Source of the DNA: Acidimicrobiaceae bacterium
GTDB taxonomy: Bacteria; Actinomycetota; Acidimicrobiia; Acidimicrobiales; RAAP-2
Assembly: GCA_013044265.1 (NCBI GenBank)
Contig: JABEUQ010000093.1
Location: 31,235-95,234, forward strand
Reading direction: 5' to 3'
DNA length: 64,000 bases
Part shown: piece by piece, positions 54,366 through 63,727 of the stretch
Numbering within the stretch: position 1 is the first letter of the stretch
How the letters are laid out: each line of letters starts with the position of its first letter
The notes under the pieces: model-generated
What the model saw: only the letters and a program-made list of their open reading frames with translations
Told to the model about the DNA's origin: nothing
The model's database searches: none
Translations under genes and position numbers: made by a program

Positions 54366-55148
54366 ATGAGCAATCCTCTCGACGAGCTGGACCTTACCCA
54401 GACCCTGTCGGCACTCGAGTCCGAGAAGCGCGTCGCTGCGGCCCAGAAGCGTCTCTTACACCTACGCCTCTTCAGTGCCGGTCTCCTCGGACCCGCCCCG
54501 CACGCGCCCGGCCTCCTTGTGCTCTTCGAAGGTTTTGACGCCGCTGGTAAGGGCGGGGCAATTCGTCGTTTGACGTCGGGGCTCGATCCGCGCCACGTTC
54601 GCGTCGTGCCCATCTCCACTCCGTCCCCGGAAGAACTTCGTCACCACTTCCTCTGGCGCTTTTCTCCATCGCTGCCGGGCCAGGGCGCGATGACCGTGTA
54701 CGACCGCTCCTGGTACGGGCGCCTCCTCGTAGAGCGTGTCGATCAGCTCATCGGCGAAGATGACGTGCGTCGTTCGGCCCAGGAGATCGTCCAATGGGAA
54801 GAAGCGCTGGTCAATGATGGCCTGACGATCGTCAAGTTTTGGATGCACATCTCCGAGGAAGAGCAACTACGCAGATTCAATGATCGTGCTAGTACTCCTT
54901 CCAAACAATGGAAACTCACCGAGGAGGACTGGCACAATCGTTCACTTCGTCCTCAGTACTTGCGCGCGCTCAAGGACATGATCAACTGGACCGACCATTC
55001 ACACGCCCATTGGGACCTCGTCGCGGGCGAGGACAAACGCTTTGCACGGGCCTACGTGCTCGAAACGCTGATTCAGCGCTGGGAGCATGACCTCGAGCGG
55101 CGTGGATTCAAGGTCCCGCCCTCGCACGGGACGAATTATTTGGCGTAA
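54366..55148 (+). CDS. ppk2: Single-domain polyphosphate kinase 2 (class II-like motifs)
   Basis: Walker A FEGFDAAGKGG, HFLWRF, DRSWYGRLLVERV, KFWMHIS, WKLTEEDW. Confidence 0.92.
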   Translation: MSNPLDELDLTQTLSALESEKRVAAAQKRLLHLRLFSAGLLGPAPHAPGLLVLFEGFDAAGKGGAIRRLTSGLDPRHVRVVPISTPSPEELRHHFLWRFSPSLPGQGAMTVYDRSWYGRLLVERVDQLIGEDDVRRSAQEIVQWEEALVNDGLTIVKFWMHISEEEQLRRFNDRASTPSKQWKLTEEDWHNRSLRPQYLRALKDMINWTDHSHAHWDLVAGEDKRFARAYVLETLIQRWEHDLERRGFKVPPSHGTNYLA

Positions 55149-55185
55149 GACCCCGTGTCTCTAGACTCGTTGTAGCGATGGGAGC

Positions 55186-55734
55186 GTGATGGCAAAGAAG
55201 AACTTGGAGAAGAAGATTTCCGACAAGAAAGAAAAGAAGAACCTCAAGACGAGGAAGATTCGCATCGGCGTCGTCGACACGATGTTCGCGCGTTACGACA
55301 TGGGCCAAGCGGCCTGCGACGAACTCTCCATCTGTCCCGGCTACAACAAGACTTTCAAGGTGATCTCGAAGACGGTCCCGGGCTTCAAGGATCTCGCGGT
55401 CGCCGCCTTGAACCTGATCGAAGAAGATGGTTGCTCCATCGTGGTCGCTCTGGGCATGCCGGGCTCGGCGCCGATTGACAAGCAGTGCGCCCACGAGGCC
55501 GCTCAGGGCATCATGCAGGCACAGCTCTTCACGGGGACCCCAATTCTCGAGGTCTTCGTGCACGAAGACGAAGCGAGTGATCCCAAAGTATTAGCGAGCG
55601 TCTTTGAGAATCGTTCACGCAAACACGCACGCAATGCGTACTGGATGCTCTTCGAGCCTGAGCAGTTGCGCCGACGCGCCGGACAGGGGATTCGTCAGGG
55701 TTTTGACGACGCCGGCCCGCTGCAGTTGAAGTAG
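55186..55734 (+). CDS. ribC: Archaeal-type (pentameric, lumazine-synthase-fold) riboflavin synthase
   Basis: IGVVDTMFARYDM, KTVPGFKDL, ALGMPG, DKQCAHEA, EVFVHEDEA, AGQGIRQGFDDAGP match the recalled Methanocaldococcus RibC motifs in order; bacterial RibH motifs are absent. Confidence 0.9.
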   Translation: MMAKKNLEKKISDKKEKKNLKTRKIRIGVVDTMFARYDMGQAACDELSICPGYNKTFKVISKTVPGFKDLAVAALNLIEEDGCSIVVALGMPGSAPIDKQCAHEAAQGIMQAQLFTGTPILEVFVHEDEASDPKVLASVFENRSRKHARNAYWMLFEPEQLRRRAGQGIRQGFDDAGPLQLK

Positions 55735-55744
55735 GAGGTTCACC

Positions 55745-56953
55745 ATGGCTGAAGCCGTTCTCGTTGCAGCGGGGCGTACCGCGATTGGTCGGGCCTTTAA
55801 GGGCTCGCTGATCGATGAGCGCCCCGATGATCTCACCGCGTACGTGGTGACCCAGGTCCTCGAACAAGTACCCGAACTCGATCCCCATATGGTCGAAGAC
55901 CTGTTGGTGGGTTGCGGTCAGCCCGCCGGAGAGGGAGGGTTCAACTTGGCACGCGTGGTAGCCGTCCTCGCCGGACTCGACGACGTGCCCGGCGTCACCA
56001 TCAATCGCTACTGCTCATCCTCCCTGCAAACGATTCGCATGGCCGCTCACGCCATTCGCGCCGGTGAAGGTGATGTGTTCGTGGCCGCCGGGGTCGAGAC
56101 CATCTCGCGATTCGGCGCGGGGATGTCCGATATCGACGCCGCCGCGAATCCTCGATTCGCCGCGGCGCGCGAACGGAGCACGATGCGCTCTGTGGAGGGT
56201 TCCGACGTCTGGACGCCGCCAACGGGTCTGCCCGACATCTACATCGCGATGGGCCAGACCGCGGAGAACGTGGTGCAACTCGAAGGCGTGAGTCGCTCGG
56301 AGATGGACGAATTCGCCTTGCGCTCCCAAGAACTCGCCGTCACCCACCAGCGCAGTGGTTTCTTCGCTCGCGAAATCATTCCAGTGACGCGCGCCGACGG
56401 GAGTATCGTCGACACCGATGACGGTCCGCGGGCCGACACCTCGCTGCAACGTCTCGCTTCGCTGGCGCCAGTCTTTCGCGCCGACGGCACTATCACGGCC
56501 GGCAACGCCTGCCCCCTCAACGATGGTGCGGCCGCGGTCGTGGTCATGAGTGATGTGCGCGCACGTGAACTCGGAATCCGTCCCCGAGCGCGCATCGTGT
56601 CCTCAGGACTGAGCGGACTCAATCCCGAGATCATGGGACTGGGGCCCATCGAGGCCAGTCGACAAGCCCTCTCTCGGGCGCACCTGACGATGAAGGACAT
56701 CGACCTCGTGGAGATCAATGAGGCCTTCGCCGCCCAGGTACTGCCGAGTGCGAAGCACCTCGGCGTACCACTCGAAAAGTTGAACGTTCGAGGTGGAGCC
56801 ATTGCGCTGGGCCACCCCTTTGGAATGACCGGCGCGAGAATCATGACGACGCTGCTGCACTCCCTCGAGGAGTCGGGTCTGCGCTACGGGCTCGAGACGA
56901 TGTGCGTCGGTGGTGGTCAGGGTATGGCGATGATCATCGAACGCCTCGACTGA
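55745..56953 (+). CDS. Acetyl-CoA C-acyltransferase (thiolase)
   Basis: NRYCSSS, TAGNACPLNDGAAA, NEAFA, GHPFG, CVGGG; AGGAGG RBS. Confidence 0.96.
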   Translation: MAEAVLVAAGRTAIGRAFKGSLIDERPDDLTAYVVTQVLEQVPELDPHMVEDLLVGCGQPAGEGGFNLARVVAVLAGLDDVPGVTINRYCSSSLQTIRMAAHAIRAGEGDVFVAAGVETISRFGAGMSDIDAAANPRFAAARERSTMRSVEGSDVWTPPTGLPDIYIAMGQTAENVVQLEGVSRSEMDEFALRSQELAVTHQRSGFFAREIIPVTRADGSIVDTDDGPRADTSLQRLASLAPVFRADGTITAGNACPLNDGAAAVVVMSDVRARELGIRPRARIVSSGLSGLNPEIMGLGPIEASRQALSRAHLTMKDIDLVEINEAFAAQVLPSAKHLGVPLEKLNVRGGAIALGHPFGMTGARIMTTLLHSLEESGLRYGLETMCVGGGQGMAMIIERLD

Positions 56954-57038
56954 GACTCTCTCCGGACCTTCAAGCAAATCGAATTAGATGATCAGGAGCG
57001 GAATGCCGTCGAGGTACGCTCCTCGTAAATTGGGCGTC

Positions 57039-58091
57039 GTGCATGATCTTGACGAAAGCCGGTGGAGCGCGGTGCAGCGTCGCGACGAGAATCTGGGGGG
57101 GACCTTCGTCTACGCCGTGGTGACGACTGGCGTAGCCTGCCAACCGGGGTGCGCCTCGCGCACACCACGTCGCGACAATGTCGAGTTCTTTTGTACCCTG
57201 CACGAGGCCGAACTCGCGGGATATCGTGCGTGTCTGCGGTGCCGTCCAGGAGAGCAGCGGGTCCTCGATGCCTCGCTCGAGGCGGTCATCTCGCTGTGCC
57301 GTCGACTCGAGCGCGACAGCGCGTCGCGCGTCGCTACCTTTGCCGCTGAGGTGGGCTACAGCGAAAGCCACCTCCGGCGTCGCTTCAGCCAAGTGATTGG
57401 TGTGCCGGTAGCCACGTACCAACGCGCACTGCGCGCCCAACGTGCCCGCGAAGCACTCGGCACATCAATGGCGGTCACCGACGCCGCGTACGAGGCCGGA
57501 TTTGGTTCGAGCCGGGCCTTCTACGAACACAGCGCGAGCCAGTTAGGCATGAGCCCACGCCACTACCGGAGTGGAGGTGAAGGTGAGCGTATAGCCTTCA
57601 CTTCGCTCGTTACCCCGCTGGGCCACGTGGTCTGCGCGAGGACTGAGCGTGGCGTGTGCGCGGTGCGAATTGGCGATGACGAGGAGGCTCTCGTGAGGGA
57701 AGTGGTCCAAGAGTTTCCCCGCGCGACTCTCGAACGCGATGACGCAGGCCTAGGAGACCTCGCATCGGTCATCGCTCTCGTGGTACGCGGCGAGGGTGAA
57801 TCCACCTTGCTCCCGCTCGATATCCAAGGAACAGCTTTCCAAATACGAGTCTGGGGTGCCCTGCGACGCGTGCCGCGCGGTACGACTCTCACGTATTCTC
57901 AGCTAGCCGAGTTAATTGGCTCTCCGCGCGCCGTGCGCGCGGTCGGATCGGCCTGTGGGGCGAATCCGGTAGCACTGGTGATCCCCTGTCACCGGGTCGT
58001 TCGCCGCGACGGGTCCCTGGGCGGCTACCGGTGGGGACTCGAAGTCAAAGAAGCGTTGCTCGAGGCCGAGAAGCCCCGGACACCGTCATGA
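57039..58091 (+). CDS. ada: Bifunctional Ada regulator / O6-methylguanine-DNA methyltransferase
   Basis: Zn motif CQPGCASR...GYRACLRC, AraC HTH, GTAFQ, PCHRV, GGYRWG; TAAATT 7 nt before GTG 57039. Confidence 0.93.
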   Translation: MHDLDESRWSAVQRRDENLGGTFVYAVVTTGVACQPGCASRTPRRDNVEFFCTLHEAELAGYRACLRCRPGEQRVLDASLEAVISLCRRLERDSASRVATFAAEVGYSESHLRRRFSQVIGVPVATYQRALRAQRAREALGTSMAVTDAAYEAGFGSSRAFYEHSASQLGMSPRHYRSGGEGERIAFTSLVTPLGHVVCARTERGVCAVRIGDDEEALVREVVQEFPRATLERDDAGLGDLASVIALVVRGEGESTLLPLDIQGTAFQIRVWGALRRVPRGTTLTYSQLAELIGSPRAVRAVGSACGANPVALVIPCHRVVRRDGSLGGYRWGLEVKEALLEAEKPRTPS

Positions 58092-59026
58092 GTGCCCCCG
58101 TCGCCACAACGAAGGCGCTGGCTCGCTCGCACGTTCCCTGGCAGGTCTGGTTCGTCGTACTCGGCGCCATCTGGGGCTGTTCGTTCTGGTGGATCAAACT
58201 CGGTCTGCGTTGGATGACCCCCGTGGACGTCGCCTTCGCGCGACTCGCCGCTGGCGCGGGTACGCTCGTTCTCATCTCGCTGTTCACTCGATCGGCTTGG
58301 CCCCGACGAGCCTCGACGTGGGGGCACCTCTTCGTCGTGGCGATCTTGCTCAACAGTGCGCCATTCACACTCTTCTCCTACGGTGAGACCCACGTGTCAG
58401 CAGTGCTCGCGGGTCTTATCAACGCCACGACGCCACTGGCGACTTTGATCGTGGTCCTCTTCGTCCTACGTCAGGAGCGCGCGAGCGCTTCAGTCCTCAC
58501 CGGACTCGGCGTCGGACTACTCGGTGTCGTCATCCTTATCGGCGTCTGGAACGGCTTCGGCGCGAGTCAGTGGCTGGGTATGGGATCGTGTCTGGCTGCC
58601 GTCGTCTGTTACGGCTTCGGCTTCTCCTATGCGCGTGGACACTTAGCGACGCTGTCGCACTCACCCGTCGCACTCGCCACCGGACAGGTACTCTGCGGGA
58701 CACTACAACTGCTGCCCTTCGCCCTGCTCTTCGGCCACGTCCACGCTCACCCACCGCTCTCGTCAGTGATGGGTCTGGCCGCGCTAGGAATTCTGGGTAC
58801 CGGCGTCGCCTACATCATCAATTTCCATATTGTGCGTAACGCTCCAGCCAGTGTCGTCAGTAGTGTGACCTACCTCACACCAATCTTCGCCGCCATCGTG
58901 GGCGTCACGTTTCTCGGCGAATCTCTCACGTGGAACGAGCCGATCGGGGCGATACTGATCCTGGTGGGGGCGGCTCTCGCCCAGGGCCGATTCCAACGAC
59001 GCGGGTCGAGCGCGGCCCCGGTGTAG
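58088..59026 (+). CDS. EamA/DMT transporter
   Basis: IWGCSF, INATTPL, two EamA repeats, 10 TM segments; ATG overlaps the ada stop. Confidence 0.92.
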   Translation: MSAPVATTKALARSHVPWQVWFVVLGAIWGCSFWWIKLGLRWMTPVDVAFARLAAGAGTLVLISLFTRSAWPRRASTWGHLFVVAILLNSAPFTLFSYGETHVSAVLAGLINATTPLATLIVVLFVLRQERASASVLTGLGVGLLGVVILIGVWNGFGASQWLGMGSCLAAVVCYGFGFSYARGHLATLSHSPVALATGQVLCGTLQLLPFALLFGHVHAHPPLSSVMGLAALGILGTGVAYIINFHIVRNAPASVVSSVTYLTPIFAAIVGVTFLGESLTWNEPIGAILILVGAALAQGRFQRRGSSAAPV

Positions 59027-60620: not shown

Positions 60621-62984
60621 CTACCGTTGGGCCCGGCGTCGCCTCCGAAGACTCGCCACCACGACCACGAGGCCCCCAGCCATCGTGAGTTCGGTGAGGA
60701 TACTGCCCCACGCGACCGCCGGATTCGCCCCGTACGTCAAGGACACCGACTTCGACGTCGGTACCACCACCATCAGATTGGGACTTACCCGGTAGGGTCC
60801 GCTCGCGCCGCTGGCGTGCCATCGTGGGAAGTACGAGATCTTGACGAGTACCGGTACTCCGACTCGAGACACGTCAAAGGAAATCGACTGCGTCGTCTGG
60901 GTCACGTGACTCACGTTCACCTTGGGCAATGTCACCGGATTGGACACCAAGTTCGCGGCGGCGACGTGAGGCCACGAGGCTGGTCCGCTACTGGCGATCG
61001 GTACTTTCCACGCCGTCGGATCCAACCACCAGGTGGCATTCGCGTTCAGCCACGCGACACGGCTCGAGAGTCCCGACACCACCACCGGGGCGTGCGTCAT
61101 CGCACTCACCACGGGGCTGTTCTTGATGAGGTAGACGTACCACTTCACTCCCGGAGGCGCCCAGGCCTTGGTGGTGGCGACGAGACGGAGCGCGGGGTCA
61201 GCGTTCGCCTGAGCCACTGCCCCGGAGGAGAAGGCGATGTAGTACTTCACCCCGAGCATCTGCAAGTGCTGAACCCCCTCGGCCACGTTCAATATTCCGT
61301 AGTTGAGGCCGACCTGAGGATTGCTCGGATTCTGGCTCAACTCGGCCTGATCGAGGAAGTGATAGGGCGTGGTGGCCGAAGATTCGAAGTAGAGACCCTC
61401 CATTGAGTCCACACAATTGTTGGTCCAGTACGGCAACAGCATGAGCGCCATCGGGGTTCCAAAACGCGATTCTCCCGCGCTGTACTCCCACATCGCGCGG
61501 CCGCAACCGTAGGTGGTGCCAACCCGACCCATGGTGCTCATCAGGTCGTGGTACTCGGGCCACGCGGCTTGACCCTGGTAGCCCGAATAGTTAAACGCCG
61601 CCCAGTTGGTGACCTGGTTGCCGGAGGTGTTGAGGTGCAGCGCGCTGGCGACGCTCGGAATCAGTCCTGGAACCACCGAGAGCAGGCCCACCAAGATGAC
61701 CACCGAGGTCGCATTAACCAGGCGCGATCGGTGCAGGTGCTCAACCAACTCGTTGCGCCAGGTGCCCGGCGTCGGTGCCACGCTCTCGACATTGGCTGGA
61801 TCTTCGACATCTTCGCCGGAGTCCTGTAACGACAGATCAATCCGGTGTTGTCGCTCGACCCATCGCCACGCACCGTAACCGACGACCCAGCCCCCCAGGA
61901 GATGGACACCGAGATACCAGAACGGGATCAAGCGCTCGTTCCAGATTGCGGCCTGGGGATCGACCACGAAGGCGACCAGCGAGGCGACCGTAATCAGCGC
62001 CAGGACCACACCCAGGCGATTACGCGTCAACGCGGCCACCACCGCTCCCACGGCGGCGAGCACGATGACCCAGCGGTACCCCGATGCCCCGCCATTCTGG
62101 GTCCACCACCCGAGCGTCGTAAAGATTGAATGCACAGAACTGGTGTTGAGGTTGGTGTACCCCATCGAGTTAGTGAGGTTCTGCGTCGCGATGAAACTTA
62201 GAAGCCACCATGCCGACAACCCAAATGAAATCAACCCCGCCCCAATAGTGAAACGAAGGGGGCGTGCGTAGTCTCCTGGTACACGTTCTTCTCGAGGGTC
62301 ACCCCATCCGCGGCGCTGTAACACCTCAACCACGACGAGAATGCCAATCGCCCCGAGCGCGAACATCCAGGGCAGGACGTGTGAGGCCAGGGTGAGACTC
62401 AGTGCAATGCCCGCCCACCAGTACCCTCGGCCCGTGCGCACACCCCGTGCAAAGAGACCGATCGTGAAGAGACTGAGCGCCAAGGAGAAGGAGAACGCGT
62501 ACTCCCCGGCCATCGTGGAGAAGAGGTTGCCCCCGTCAATCGTGAAGCTGGCGTCAAAGAGGAATGGCAGAGTGGCGAGCGCCAGTGCCGCCGGCACCGG
62601 GCGGGGCGCCCGAAAGAGTCGAGCCATCACGTAGGCGCTGATCGGCATGAGGACCGAACCAAGGATCGTGACCAACTTGAAAGCCACGGCAAAATTGATC
62701 ACGTAACTCGCGAGCACCGCCAGGTAGTCCGGCAACACGAAGTAGTAGGTGTAGGCGGGCATCCCGTCAAACCAACCGGGGTACCACGGAGTGACATGCA
62801 AGAGATCACCCTGACTGCGCAAGAACGCCGGCAGGACAACGTGTGCTCCAGTATCACCTCCGGTGATGAGCGTCGAGGAGAAGATCAGGTTGGGGTGCAT
62901 CGACCACACGGTGACCACGATGACGACGGCCACCGCGAAGAAGTCGATCCAGGACAGCACCGTACGCCGTCGTAGCCAGCGCAT
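60621..62984 (-). CDS. GT-C/YfhO-like multi-TM glycosyltransferase (PTPS_related family)
   Basis: First-loop GGDTGAH, WYPGWFDGMP, about 12 TM segments, large extracellular domain ending SYFPRW...NLMVVVP; ATG overlaps the CPBP stop (TAATG). Confidence 0.7.
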   Translation of the reverse strand: MRWLRRRTVLSWIDFFAVAVVIVVTVWSMHPNLIFSSTLITGGDTGAHVVLPAFLRSQGDLLHVTPWYPGWFDGMPAYTYYFVLPDYLAVLASYVINFAVAFKLVTILGSVLMPISAYVMARLFRAPRPVPAALALATLPFLFDASFTIDGGNLFSTMAGEYAFSFSLALSLFTIGLFARGVRTGRGYWWAGIALSLTLASHVLPWMFALGAIGILVVVEVLQRRGWGDPREERVPGDYARPLRFTIGAGLISFGLSAWWLLSFIATQNLTNSMGYTNLNTSSVHSIFTTLGWWTQNGGASGYRWVIVLAAVGAVVAALTRNRLGVVLALITVASLVAFVVDPQAAIWNERLIPFWYLGVHLLGGWVVGYGAWRWVERQHRIDLSLQDSGEDVEDPANVESVAPTPGTWRNELVEHLHRSRLVNATSVVILVGLLSVVPGLIPSVASALHLNTSGNQVTNWAAFNYSGYQGQAAWPEYHDLMSTMGRVGTTYGCGRAMWEYSAGESRFGTPMALMLLPYWTNNCVDSMEGLYFESSATTPYHFLDQAELSQNPSNPQVGLNYGILNVAEGVQHLQMLGVKYYIAFSSGAVAQANADPALRLVATTKAWAPPGVKWYVYLIKNSPVVSAMTHAPVVVSGLSSRVAWLNANATWWLDPTAWKVPIASSGPASWPHVAAANLVSNPVTLPKVNVSHVTQTTQSISFDVSRVGVPVLVKISYFPRWHASGASGPYRVSPNLMVVVPTSKSVSLTYGANPAVAWGSILTELTMAGGLVVVVASLRRRRRAQR

Positions 62985-63727
62985 TAGTGATGCAACCTTT
63001 GAGAGATGAGTGAAACCATAGTGAGCGCATTGAAGCCTACGTGCGTCAACACCGCCGGCAGAAGTCGCTGGGTTCGCAGCACGATGACTGCGAGCACCAC
63101 ACCCAGGAAGAAGAGTCCTGGCAACTGCAGCCATTCCGCGTGCGCGAGCGCGAAGATGAGAGCACTGCTCAGCACCGCGAGTACTGTCCCATTACGTCCC
63201 CAGCGTGGCGAGAGTCCCGCGTCGAGCGCGCGAAAGATGACGCCGCGAAACAACCACTCCTCCACCACCGGAGCGCCCACGACCGTCATTAGCGCGAGCA
63301 GGGCAAACCAGCTCCCGTGGGCCGATCCAAAGAGGTGATTGACAGGTTTGTTCATATTCTTAAAATGGAAAGGTAAATAGGCCAGTCCGACCAGCAATTG
63401 CAGTGCGACGCCCACGATTAGAAAGGTCCCGTCGTAGCGACGCGGACGCCACGCGTTGGCCAATGCGTCAAGGCCCCCGCGATGGTGCGCGAGGTAGATC
63501 GCGACACCGAAACCAACCCAAAGTCCAGCCAATCCAGCCACATTTGACCACCAGGGTGGCTCGCTGGCCGCAGCGAGAGCGGTCATGCCACCGGGGAAAT
63601 GAGCGACTGACACGAAGACACCATCGAGCAGGGACGCCACTACCTGACCCAGCACGAAACCGAGGAGGGCAATGACGATGATGCCCACGACGCGGGGCTG
63701 ATTCTTAAGTTTCGTGTCCGTCACCAC
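62984..63727 (-). CDS. CPBP (Abi/CAAX type II) intramembrane glutamic protease
   Basis: APVVEEWLFRG (EExxxR), FALAH, HVGFN; TAGCGT 5 nt before GTG. Confidence 0.93.
   Translation of the reverse strand: MVTDTKLKNQPRVVGIIVIALLGFVLGQVVASLLDGVFVSVAHFPGGMTALAAASEPPWWSNVAGLAGLWVGFGVAIYLAHHRGGLDALANAWRPRRYDGTFLIVGVALQLLVGLAYLPFHFKNMNKPVNHLFGSAHGSWFALLALMTVVGAPVVEEWLFRGVIFRALDAGLSPRWGRNGTVLAVLSSALIFALAHAEWLQLPGLFFLGVVLAVIVLRTQRLLPAVLTHVGFNALTMVSLISQRLHH

Follow-up and report, generated by a model that had tools for sequence, protein, structure and literature searches.

Riboflavin synthases of two non-homologous kinds have been described. Archaeal RibC constitutes a unique pentameric class that is not homologous to bacterial RibE (PMC5397151) and is regarded as derived from its paralogue, lumazine synthase (PMC13151069). 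The trimeric enzyme, represented by E. coli RibC/RibE (PDB 1I8D, PF00677), catalyzes the same overall reaction (PMC13151069); however, it adopts an unrelated double β-barrel fold, and the pentacyclic intermediate formed by the pentameric enzyme has inverted stereochemistry relative to that of the trimeric type (PMC13151069). Riboflavin reviews, among them one of 2026 (PMC13151069), treat the pentameric type as a rarity, cited from two methanogens only. Archaeal-type enzymes termed RibE2 occur in the roseoflavin clusters of Streptomyces davaonensis and S. berlinensis (PMC11039241), and a passage of that paper, which cites Jankowitsch 2012, attributes them to horizontal transfer. Here we describe ribC, an archaeal-type riboflavin synthase gene on a 64,000-nucleotide stretch of DNA, analysed as a whole and referred to as the window, from an Acidimicrobiaceae bacterium (GenBank assembly GCA_013044265.1, contig JABEUQ010000093.1, positions 31,235 to 95,234 of the forward strand). 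The gene product is a member of the archaeal family by sequence, and its homologues form what appears to be a long-established trait of the order Acidimicrobiales. A literature search found no publication discussing the distribution of archaeal-type riboflavin synthase in Acidimicrobiales.

Profile comparisons confirmed that the window gene belongs to the archaeal-type riboflavin synthase family, TIGR01506. The NCBIfam equivalog model (ribC_arch) scores 177.5 bits with an E value of 1.6e-52, against a curated cutoff of 100.55 bits, and residues 27-179 of the protein align with positions 2-151 of the 151-position model. The lumazine synthase model TIGR00114, with a curated cutoff of 84.6 bits, scores 26.7 bits. 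The Pfam scan yields PF00885 alone, at 52 bits, so that the two Lum_binding domains (PF00677) of the trimeric riboflavin synthase, an enzyme to which the window protein has no sequence similarity, are not found. Among solved structures, the best sequence match is the pentameric riboflavin synthase of Methanocaldococcus jannaschii (MJ1184; PDB entries 2B98 and 2B99), the TIGR01506 type member, which aligns end to end with an E value of 1e-50, and lumazine synthases appear in the same PDB search at E values of 0.17 or worse. The amino acid sequence identity to M. jannaschii RibC is about 57% (54-57%), compared with 19-24% to lumazine synthases. A previous sequence-only reading of this DNA had placed the protein in the archaeal family by its motifs (DTxFAR, TVPGxKDL, ALGMPG, CAHEA, EVFVHEDE and AGxGxRQGF). 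All of these are present, and the hidden Markov model scores likewise point to riboflavin synthase and not to lumazine synthase.

The AlphaFold2 model of the monomer exhibits alternating strands and helices, from E24-31 through H132-145, with a mean predicted local distance difference test (pLDDT) score of 63. Its top Foldseek matches are 2b99 and 2b98, with an E value of 2e-15 and target-normalised TM-scores of 0.70-0.74, and lumazine synthases are matched only at E values of 1e-6 or worse. The C-terminal residues 144-181 are modeled with low pLDDT, which would fit a segment that becomes ordered only in the oligomer. Conserved columns of the family were defined as those conserved in at least 90% of 27 diverse non-Acidimicrobiales representatives; the window protein retains 34 of the 35, the sole exception being Ser60. 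The protein thus shares with M. jannaschii RibC the fold, all of the motifs and the expected reaction. It differs in its bacterial host, in a 3-residue insertion (CPGY...) after helix 1, in a 24-residue tail, and in the replacement of R36 by Ser and of K51 by Asn. The ratio of nonsynonymous to synonymous substitution rates (dN/dS) is 0.043 relative to the closest orthologue (locus L001), and its median for the 76 orthologues compared is 0.12; these values are approximate because dS is saturated in most pairs. RibC evolves more slowly than the products of the adjacent thiolase and polyphosphate kinase 2 (PPK2) genes.

The features of the locus are collected in Table 1. The open reading frame is intact and, with the GTG codon at 55186 included, spans 55186..55734 on the forward strand. 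The ATG at 55189 is the preferred start codon because the GTG lies just 1 nt past the GGGAG element, which makes it an unlikely alternative. The exact 181-residue product of the ATG start is called on an independently assembled public contig, VFSW01092613.1, and an exact-protein look-up returned no record of the 182-residue version beginning at GTG 55186. The guanine and cytosine content of third codon positions (GC3) is 0.764 in ribC and 0.67-0.78 in ten neighbouring genes. Its codon use is indistinguishable from that of the neighbours, with a mid-range value in a leave-one-out codon-usage score. The sequence-only reading was therefore correct in describing an intact gene, with its own ribosome-binding site and GC-rich third positions like those of its neighbours; by GC3 and codon use the gene is fully ameliorated. 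The -10 element proposed in that reading is present as a hexamer, but in a scan for sigma-70 consensus promoters and terminators, the forward strand upstream of ribC yielded no promoter or terminator beyond shuffle expectation. Metatranscriptome contigs obtained from a mixed culture match 55558-55719 exactly, and one of them spans 55690-55838, across the ribC/thiolase junction; these matches constitute weak evidence for expression of ribC and for its co-transcription with the thiolase gene. Such co-transcription is probable because the thiolase gene starts 10 nt past the ribC stop codon.

Table 1 Features of the ribC locus, in coordinates of the window.
Feature	Coordinates	Strand	Basis or remark
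ribC, archaeal-type (pentameric, lumazine-synthase-fold) riboflavin synthase, 181 aa + stop	55189..55734	+	TIGR01506, PDB 2b98, Foldseek
Catalytic DMRL_synthase-fold domain, residues 25-181	55261..55731	+	TIGR01506 match, conserved columns, dN/dS
Lys-rich low-complexity N-terminal tail, residues 1-24	55189..55260	+	Alignment, GC3, pLDDT
Ser60 codon	55366..55368	+	Replaces family-invariant Arg (M. jannaschii R36), two residues before TVPG
Asn75 codon	55411..55413	+	Lys/Arg elsewhere (M. jannaschii K51); only other subclade-specific fixed residue
48-nt high-depth unitig coding GIRQGFDDAGP	55672..55719	+	Depth in run X1 246 vs 28 and 26 on the flanks, about nine-fold
Shine-Dalgarno-like GGGAG	55180..55184	+	Read from sequence; 4 nt 5' of ATG 55189
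TAGACT, candidate -10 (TANNNT type)	55162..55167	+	Hexamer present; absent from sigma-70 consensus scan output
PPK2 (polyphosphate kinase 2), upstream neighbour	54366..55148	+	Pfam PF03976, E 1e-66; 40-nt gap to ribC
Acetyl-CoA acetyltransferase (thiolase), downstream neighbour	55745..56953	+	Pfam Thiolase_N + Thiolase_C

The gene is widespread among relatives of the host. When one genome per GTDB species was scanned, at least 591 relatives were detected, of which the best 80, with 70-93% identity, were used for the analysis of synteny. With two exceptions, these 80 derive from metagenome-assembled genomes (MAGs) assigned to Acidimicrobiales or Acidimicrobiaceae or from less precisely named actinobacterial MAGs. 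The two exceptions (L021 and L048) are contigs titled Acidobacteria or Acidobacteriota that carry the PPK2-ribC-thiolase order, followed in L021 by the phosphoglucomutase (PGM) gene, and encode RibC proteins 75-85% identical to that of the window; they are probably mis-binned or mislabelled. Among the best 80 loci, 50 have a thiolase gene, which in most of them is the next gene after ribC. PPK2 precedes ribC in 41 of the 80; on the downstream side, PGM is present in 36 and an 837-residue open reading frame in 37. In the remaining loci, and in a very large second subclade recognized by the N-terminus MDRIGVVDTMF, ribC is divergent to bioA/F/D/B. This second subclade, which includes Aciditerrimonas ferrireducens, belongs to the same family and order and is 70-74% identical to the window protein, and its ribC is likewise stand-alone. 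It differs from the window's subclade in its position beside biotin genes and not PPK2 and thiolase, in retaining the conserved Arg, and in having no N-terminal tail. The carriers' habitats are mostly peat and soil.

A profile search retrieved at least 7999 proteins at E values of 1e-10 or better. Names given by the sources (NCBI, JGI), borne by thousands of database proteins, include riboflavin synthase of an Acidimicrobiales bacterium, of an Actinomycetota bacterium and of Aciditerrimonas ferrireducens; the function is already recognised in public annotation, including that of this cultured species. A neighbour-joining tree (100 bootstrap replicates) recovers the Acidimicrobiales-type sequences as monophyletic in 78% of the replicates and the window's subclade in 95%. 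Distances between RibC proteins correlate with those between the concatenated neighbours (Mantel r = 0.42, with 0/2000 permutations reaching this value, over the 24 loci that have all three neighbours). Judged from these sequence comparisons, ribC is a lineage trait that has long been inherited vertically in Acidimicrobiales. Its presence in the 80 best species together with the conserved synteny means that the gene is no peculiarity of the window genome, and the exceptional status accorded to it by the sequence-only reading does not hold, the family being widespread and vertically inherited in this bacterial class.

Outside the Acidimicrobiales clade, the nearest sequences are 55-61% identical to the window protein. 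Clustering at 50% showed the family to be small, with 247 representatives at E values of 1e-3 or better, and the domain of origin of the nearest ones was inferred from neighbouring genes. One representative (P0127, 57% identity) is encoded on an archaeal contig (L084) together with Ribosomal_S17e, L21e and Rpb4, whereas another (P0131, 54%) lies on a bacterial-looking contig with genes for TetR, MerR, peptide deformylase, zf-CGNR and an MST/DinB protein; M. jannaschii RibC, at 57%, is equally distant. On the archaeal contig, positions 1-4700 of L084 contain a compact ribB-ribL(CTP_transf_like)-ribC-ribH cluster, the RibC of which has Gly-rich termini, in contrast to the stand-alone ribC of the window. 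All nodes of the neighbour-joining tree deeper than the Acidimicrobiales clade have bootstrap values below 50%, and no archaeal donor lineage was resolved in it.

The family also occurs in other Actinomycetota. A plasmid of S. camelliae (NZ_CP115301.1), which is linear, 273 kb in size and non-mobilizable, carries at 98636-117097 (locus L088) a roseoflavin-type cluster of ribA, an archaeal-type ribC, ribX, rosB and ABC transporter genes. Its location suggests that the RibE2/rosB module can be plasmid-borne. The S. camelliae product is likewise of the archaeal type and is 63% identical to the window protein. However, the Streptomyces gene is an extra copy in an antibiotic cluster, while the window gene occupies a core, syntenic and lineage-wide context; bootstrap support for joining the Streptomyces protein to the Acidimicrobiales clade is only 13%, and no Lys-rich tail was seen in it. 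The general statement of the sequence-only reading that bacteria use an unrelated trimeric synthase is too absolute in view of the Streptomyces RibE2 (PMC11039241) and the S. camelliae copy.

One ancient transfer between domains followed by vertical descent would fit the codon use, the dN/dS of about 0.1, the monophyly of the clade and the identity to archaeal members. The tree is not rooted; a direction from archaea to bacteria would be favoured because the family is broad in archaea, where it lies in rib clusters, and is found in few bacterial groups. The old transfer suggested in the sequence-only reading is accordingly plausible in the light of the host-like codon use, the monophyletic clade and the 55-60% identity to archaeal members. 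Its proposed route, through acidic habitats shared with Thermoplasmatales, finds no support: the carriers are mostly from peat and soil, no donor clade is resolved, and Thermoplasma species are reported to be B2 auxotrophs (PMC5397151).

The window's subclade is distinguished by its N-terminus and by two residues. A disordered tail rich in Lys and Arg precedes the catalytic domain in all of the 120 best homologues. Its median length is 12-16 residues, about 7 of them Lys or Arg, and in the sequences aligned it ranges from roughly 10 to 80 residues; archaeal members and other Acidimicrobiales subclades lack it. The tail codons of the window gene have a GC3 of 0.79 compared with 0.21 at first positions, which indicates that the tail is translated. 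Residues 1-19 have pLDDT values below 50 in the AlphaFold2 model. At the position of Ser60, Arg is found in 27/27 non-Acidimicrobiales representatives, and other Acidimicrobiales subclades have Arg or, rarely, His; the 120 best homologues, which represent the window's subclade, have Ser, Thr or Ala without exception. The tail, the loss of this Arg and Asn75 occur together in 120/120 of the closest homologues and in no other family member. Charge compensation or docking to an anionic partner are ideas that might explain these features.

The genes around ribC do not include other genes of the pathway. No homologue of RibA, RibB, RibD, RibE or RibH was detected by tblastn in the window and 82 related loci, 944 kb in total and well under 1% of those genomes, with 64 kb read from the window genome and about 12 kb from each relative. 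The queries were E. coli RibE, RibA, RibB and RibD and B. subtilis RibH, the RibE query having been verified against PDB entry 1i8d. An Rfam scan of the 64-kb window identified neither a flavin mononucleotide riboswitch nor any other Rfam family. The gene therefore lies outside any rib operon, as had been read from the sequence. The proteins encoded on both sides of ribC are 70-90% identical to those of the closest Acidimicrobiaceae MAGs, which bears out the actinobacterial surroundings also described there.

We propose that the gene product is a riboflavin synthase (EC 2.5.1.9) of the archaeal lumazine-synthase-fold type. Family membership is shown by the comparisons above, and both activity and pentameric state are predicted from homology. 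By analogy with M. jannaschii RibC, the protein would form a homopentamer whose active sites lie between adjoining subunits, at their interfaces, and would dismutate two molecules of 6,7-dimethyl-8-ribityllumazine (DMRL) into riboflavin and 5-amino-6-ribitylamino-uracil, through a pentacyclic intermediate expected to be opposite in stereochemistry to the one that the trimeric bacterial enzyme forms. Its likely role is that of the cell's riboflavin synthase, perhaps beside another one, and it would be expressed as a stand-alone gene co-transcribed with the thiolase gene and not from a rib operon. It would thus be a housekeeping, vertically inherited Acidimicrobiales trait, acquired most probably in one ancient transfer between archaea and an actinobacterial ancestor. 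As a whole, this reading is held with good confidence.

Several points weigh against it. The activity of the Acidimicrobiales members is predicted from sequence alone, and the quality of the AlphaFold2 model is modest. The replacement of Arg by Ser60 and the addition of a 24-residue polycationic tail mean that activity or regulation may be altered in this subclade. With no rib gene linked to ribC in the window or the 82 related loci, genomic context lends no support to a role in the pathway. The co-divergence of RibC with its neighbours is only moderate, since correlations between one neighbour and another are about 0.65, and the correlation of RibC with the thiolase alone is r = 0.15 (108/2000 permutations, 47 loci). 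With the low bootstrap values of its deeper nodes, the tree neither distinguishes one transfer from several nor gives a direction, and it does not firmly place the copies of Streptomyces and other bacteria relative to those of Acidimicrobiales.

Two further explanations concern what the gene is and whether it belongs where it was found. A divergent lumazine synthase (RibH, TIGR00114) would share with the window protein the flavodoxin-like fold, the Pfam family PF00885 and the pentameric building blocks, and lumazine synthases do recur as weaker structural matches. However, RibH catalyzes the preceding pathway step, the TIGR00114 score lies far below its cutoff while that of TIGR01506 is well above its own, the identity is less than half of that to the M. 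jannaschii riboflavin synthase, and the C-terminal AGxGxRQG motif of the window protein is without counterpart in the aligned B. subtilis RibH. The model scores, the identities and this motif effectively refute a lumazine synthase identity, which we consider highly improbable. A yet smaller, practically negligible probability is given to an assembly or binning artefact in which an archaeal fragment was joined to actinobacterial DNA. The host is an Acidimicrobiales bacterium from acid mine drainage, and metagenomes from such sites contain near-identical DNA. In favour of an artefact, the Logan short-read contigs of two mine-drainage runs end at 55690-55701, within the 3' end of ribC. The break, however, coincides with a shared 48-nt unitig of high depth, at which short-read assembly stops because co-occurring Acidimicrobiales strains have the conserved C-terminal motif in common, and the depth is equal on either side of it (28 vs 26 in run X1, 14.5 vs 11 in run X2). 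In addition, an independently assembled 3448-bp contig covers PPK2-ribC-thiolase-Ada, including both junctions of ribC, at 99.9% identity, the same order is found in 50 other MAGs from unrelated studies, and the codon use is host-like. A chimera, which the sequence-only reading had named as a possible pitfall, is excluded by the spanning contig, the equal depths and the gene order recurring in unrelated MAGs.

The remaining explanations concern the place of RibC in the cell. We lean towards a replacement of the trimeric RibE by RibC in these genomes, because ribC lies in a core-genome context, is retained across the lineage and is strongly constrained. A less probable interpretation, which nevertheless deserves serious consideration, is that RibC is a second, accessory riboflavin synthase beside a canonical trimeric RibE, and replaced nothing. 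The only published bacterial precedent, the Streptomyces RibE2, is indeed an additional copy in a specialised rosB cluster (PMC11039241), and the ribC of the S. camelliae plasmid is arranged likewise, together with ribA, ribX and rosB. In Acidimicrobiales, however, ribC resides in core contexts (PPK2-thiolase-PGM, or beside bio genes), outside secondary-metabolite clusters. At least 80 species have kept it, with strong purifying selection acting on it, whereas redundant copies are usually lost patchily, and no RibE-like sequence was found in the 944 kb searched, a small fraction of those genomes. A more far-reaching scenario seems unlikely, in which the trimeric enzyme was displaced in ancient times throughout the order, perhaps the class, an event absent from riboflavin reviews, and one family-level subclade later lost the invariant Arg and a Lys/Arg and gained a docking tail. 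Such a tail might hold the pentamer to an anionic partner by electrostatic attraction. A candidate is the lumen of a lumazine synthase capsid, which would amount to an independent reinvention of the 'heavy riboflavin synthase' of Bacillus; another is polyphosphate from the adjacent PPK2. Somewhat more doubtful still is neofunctionalisation of the tail-bearing subclade, with a changed substrate, partner or regulatory role. The substitution of Ser, Thr or Ala for the invariant Arg and the tail, fixed throughout the 120 subclade members, would agree with such a change, as would Asn75 in place of Lys or Arg. These differences are set against the intact state of the other 34 conserved positions, a TIGR01506 score far over the equivalog cutoff, dN/dS values as low as in other subclades, and the observation that none of the loci contains a second ribC copy.

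Further genes near ribC encode a GT2 glycosyltransferase, permeases, an Ada-type methyltransferase, an EamA transporter and PGM. The open reading frames of the methyltransferase (56988-58091) and the EamA transporter (58031-59026) overlap by 61 nt as listed, and a later start is called for EamA on a public contig, giving a product of 312 residues. The 837-residue open reading frame (60621-63134, reverse strand), kept downstream of ribC, thiolase and PGM in 37 of the 80 loci, matches no Pfam family at E values of 1e-5 or better. The library of family representatives also contains fusion proteins of about 250-310 residues (P0143, P0147, P0150, P0158, P0161 and P0163), in which an N-terminal archaeal-type riboflavin synthase is joined to a C-terminal lumazine-synthase-like domain, which places the last two steps of the pathway on one chain. 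Two other RibC homologues (P0129 and P0133) have Pro-rich, low-complexity extensions of 200-250 residues at the N-terminus.

Taken as a single gene, the ribC of the window is a true but ordinary finding: public annotation names it correctly already, its sequence is 93% identical to known ones, and it has been inherited within the lineage. The lineage-wide replacement and the variant with a tail and without the Arg are the only aspects that are perhaps worth further work. The only bacterial case discussed in the literature is an accessory copy in roseoflavin-producing Streptomyces; here, a large and environmentally abundant bacterial order, found in peat, soil and acid mine drainage, carries the pentameric enzyme as a conserved core gene. 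If the trimeric enzyme is absent from these bacteria, this would be a clean, lineage-wide case of non-orthologous displacement between domains in an essential vitamin pathway. Annotation pipelines that seek the trimeric type alone would then miscall these bacteria as B2 auxotrophs, and inhibitors of the trimeric enzyme would not affect them.

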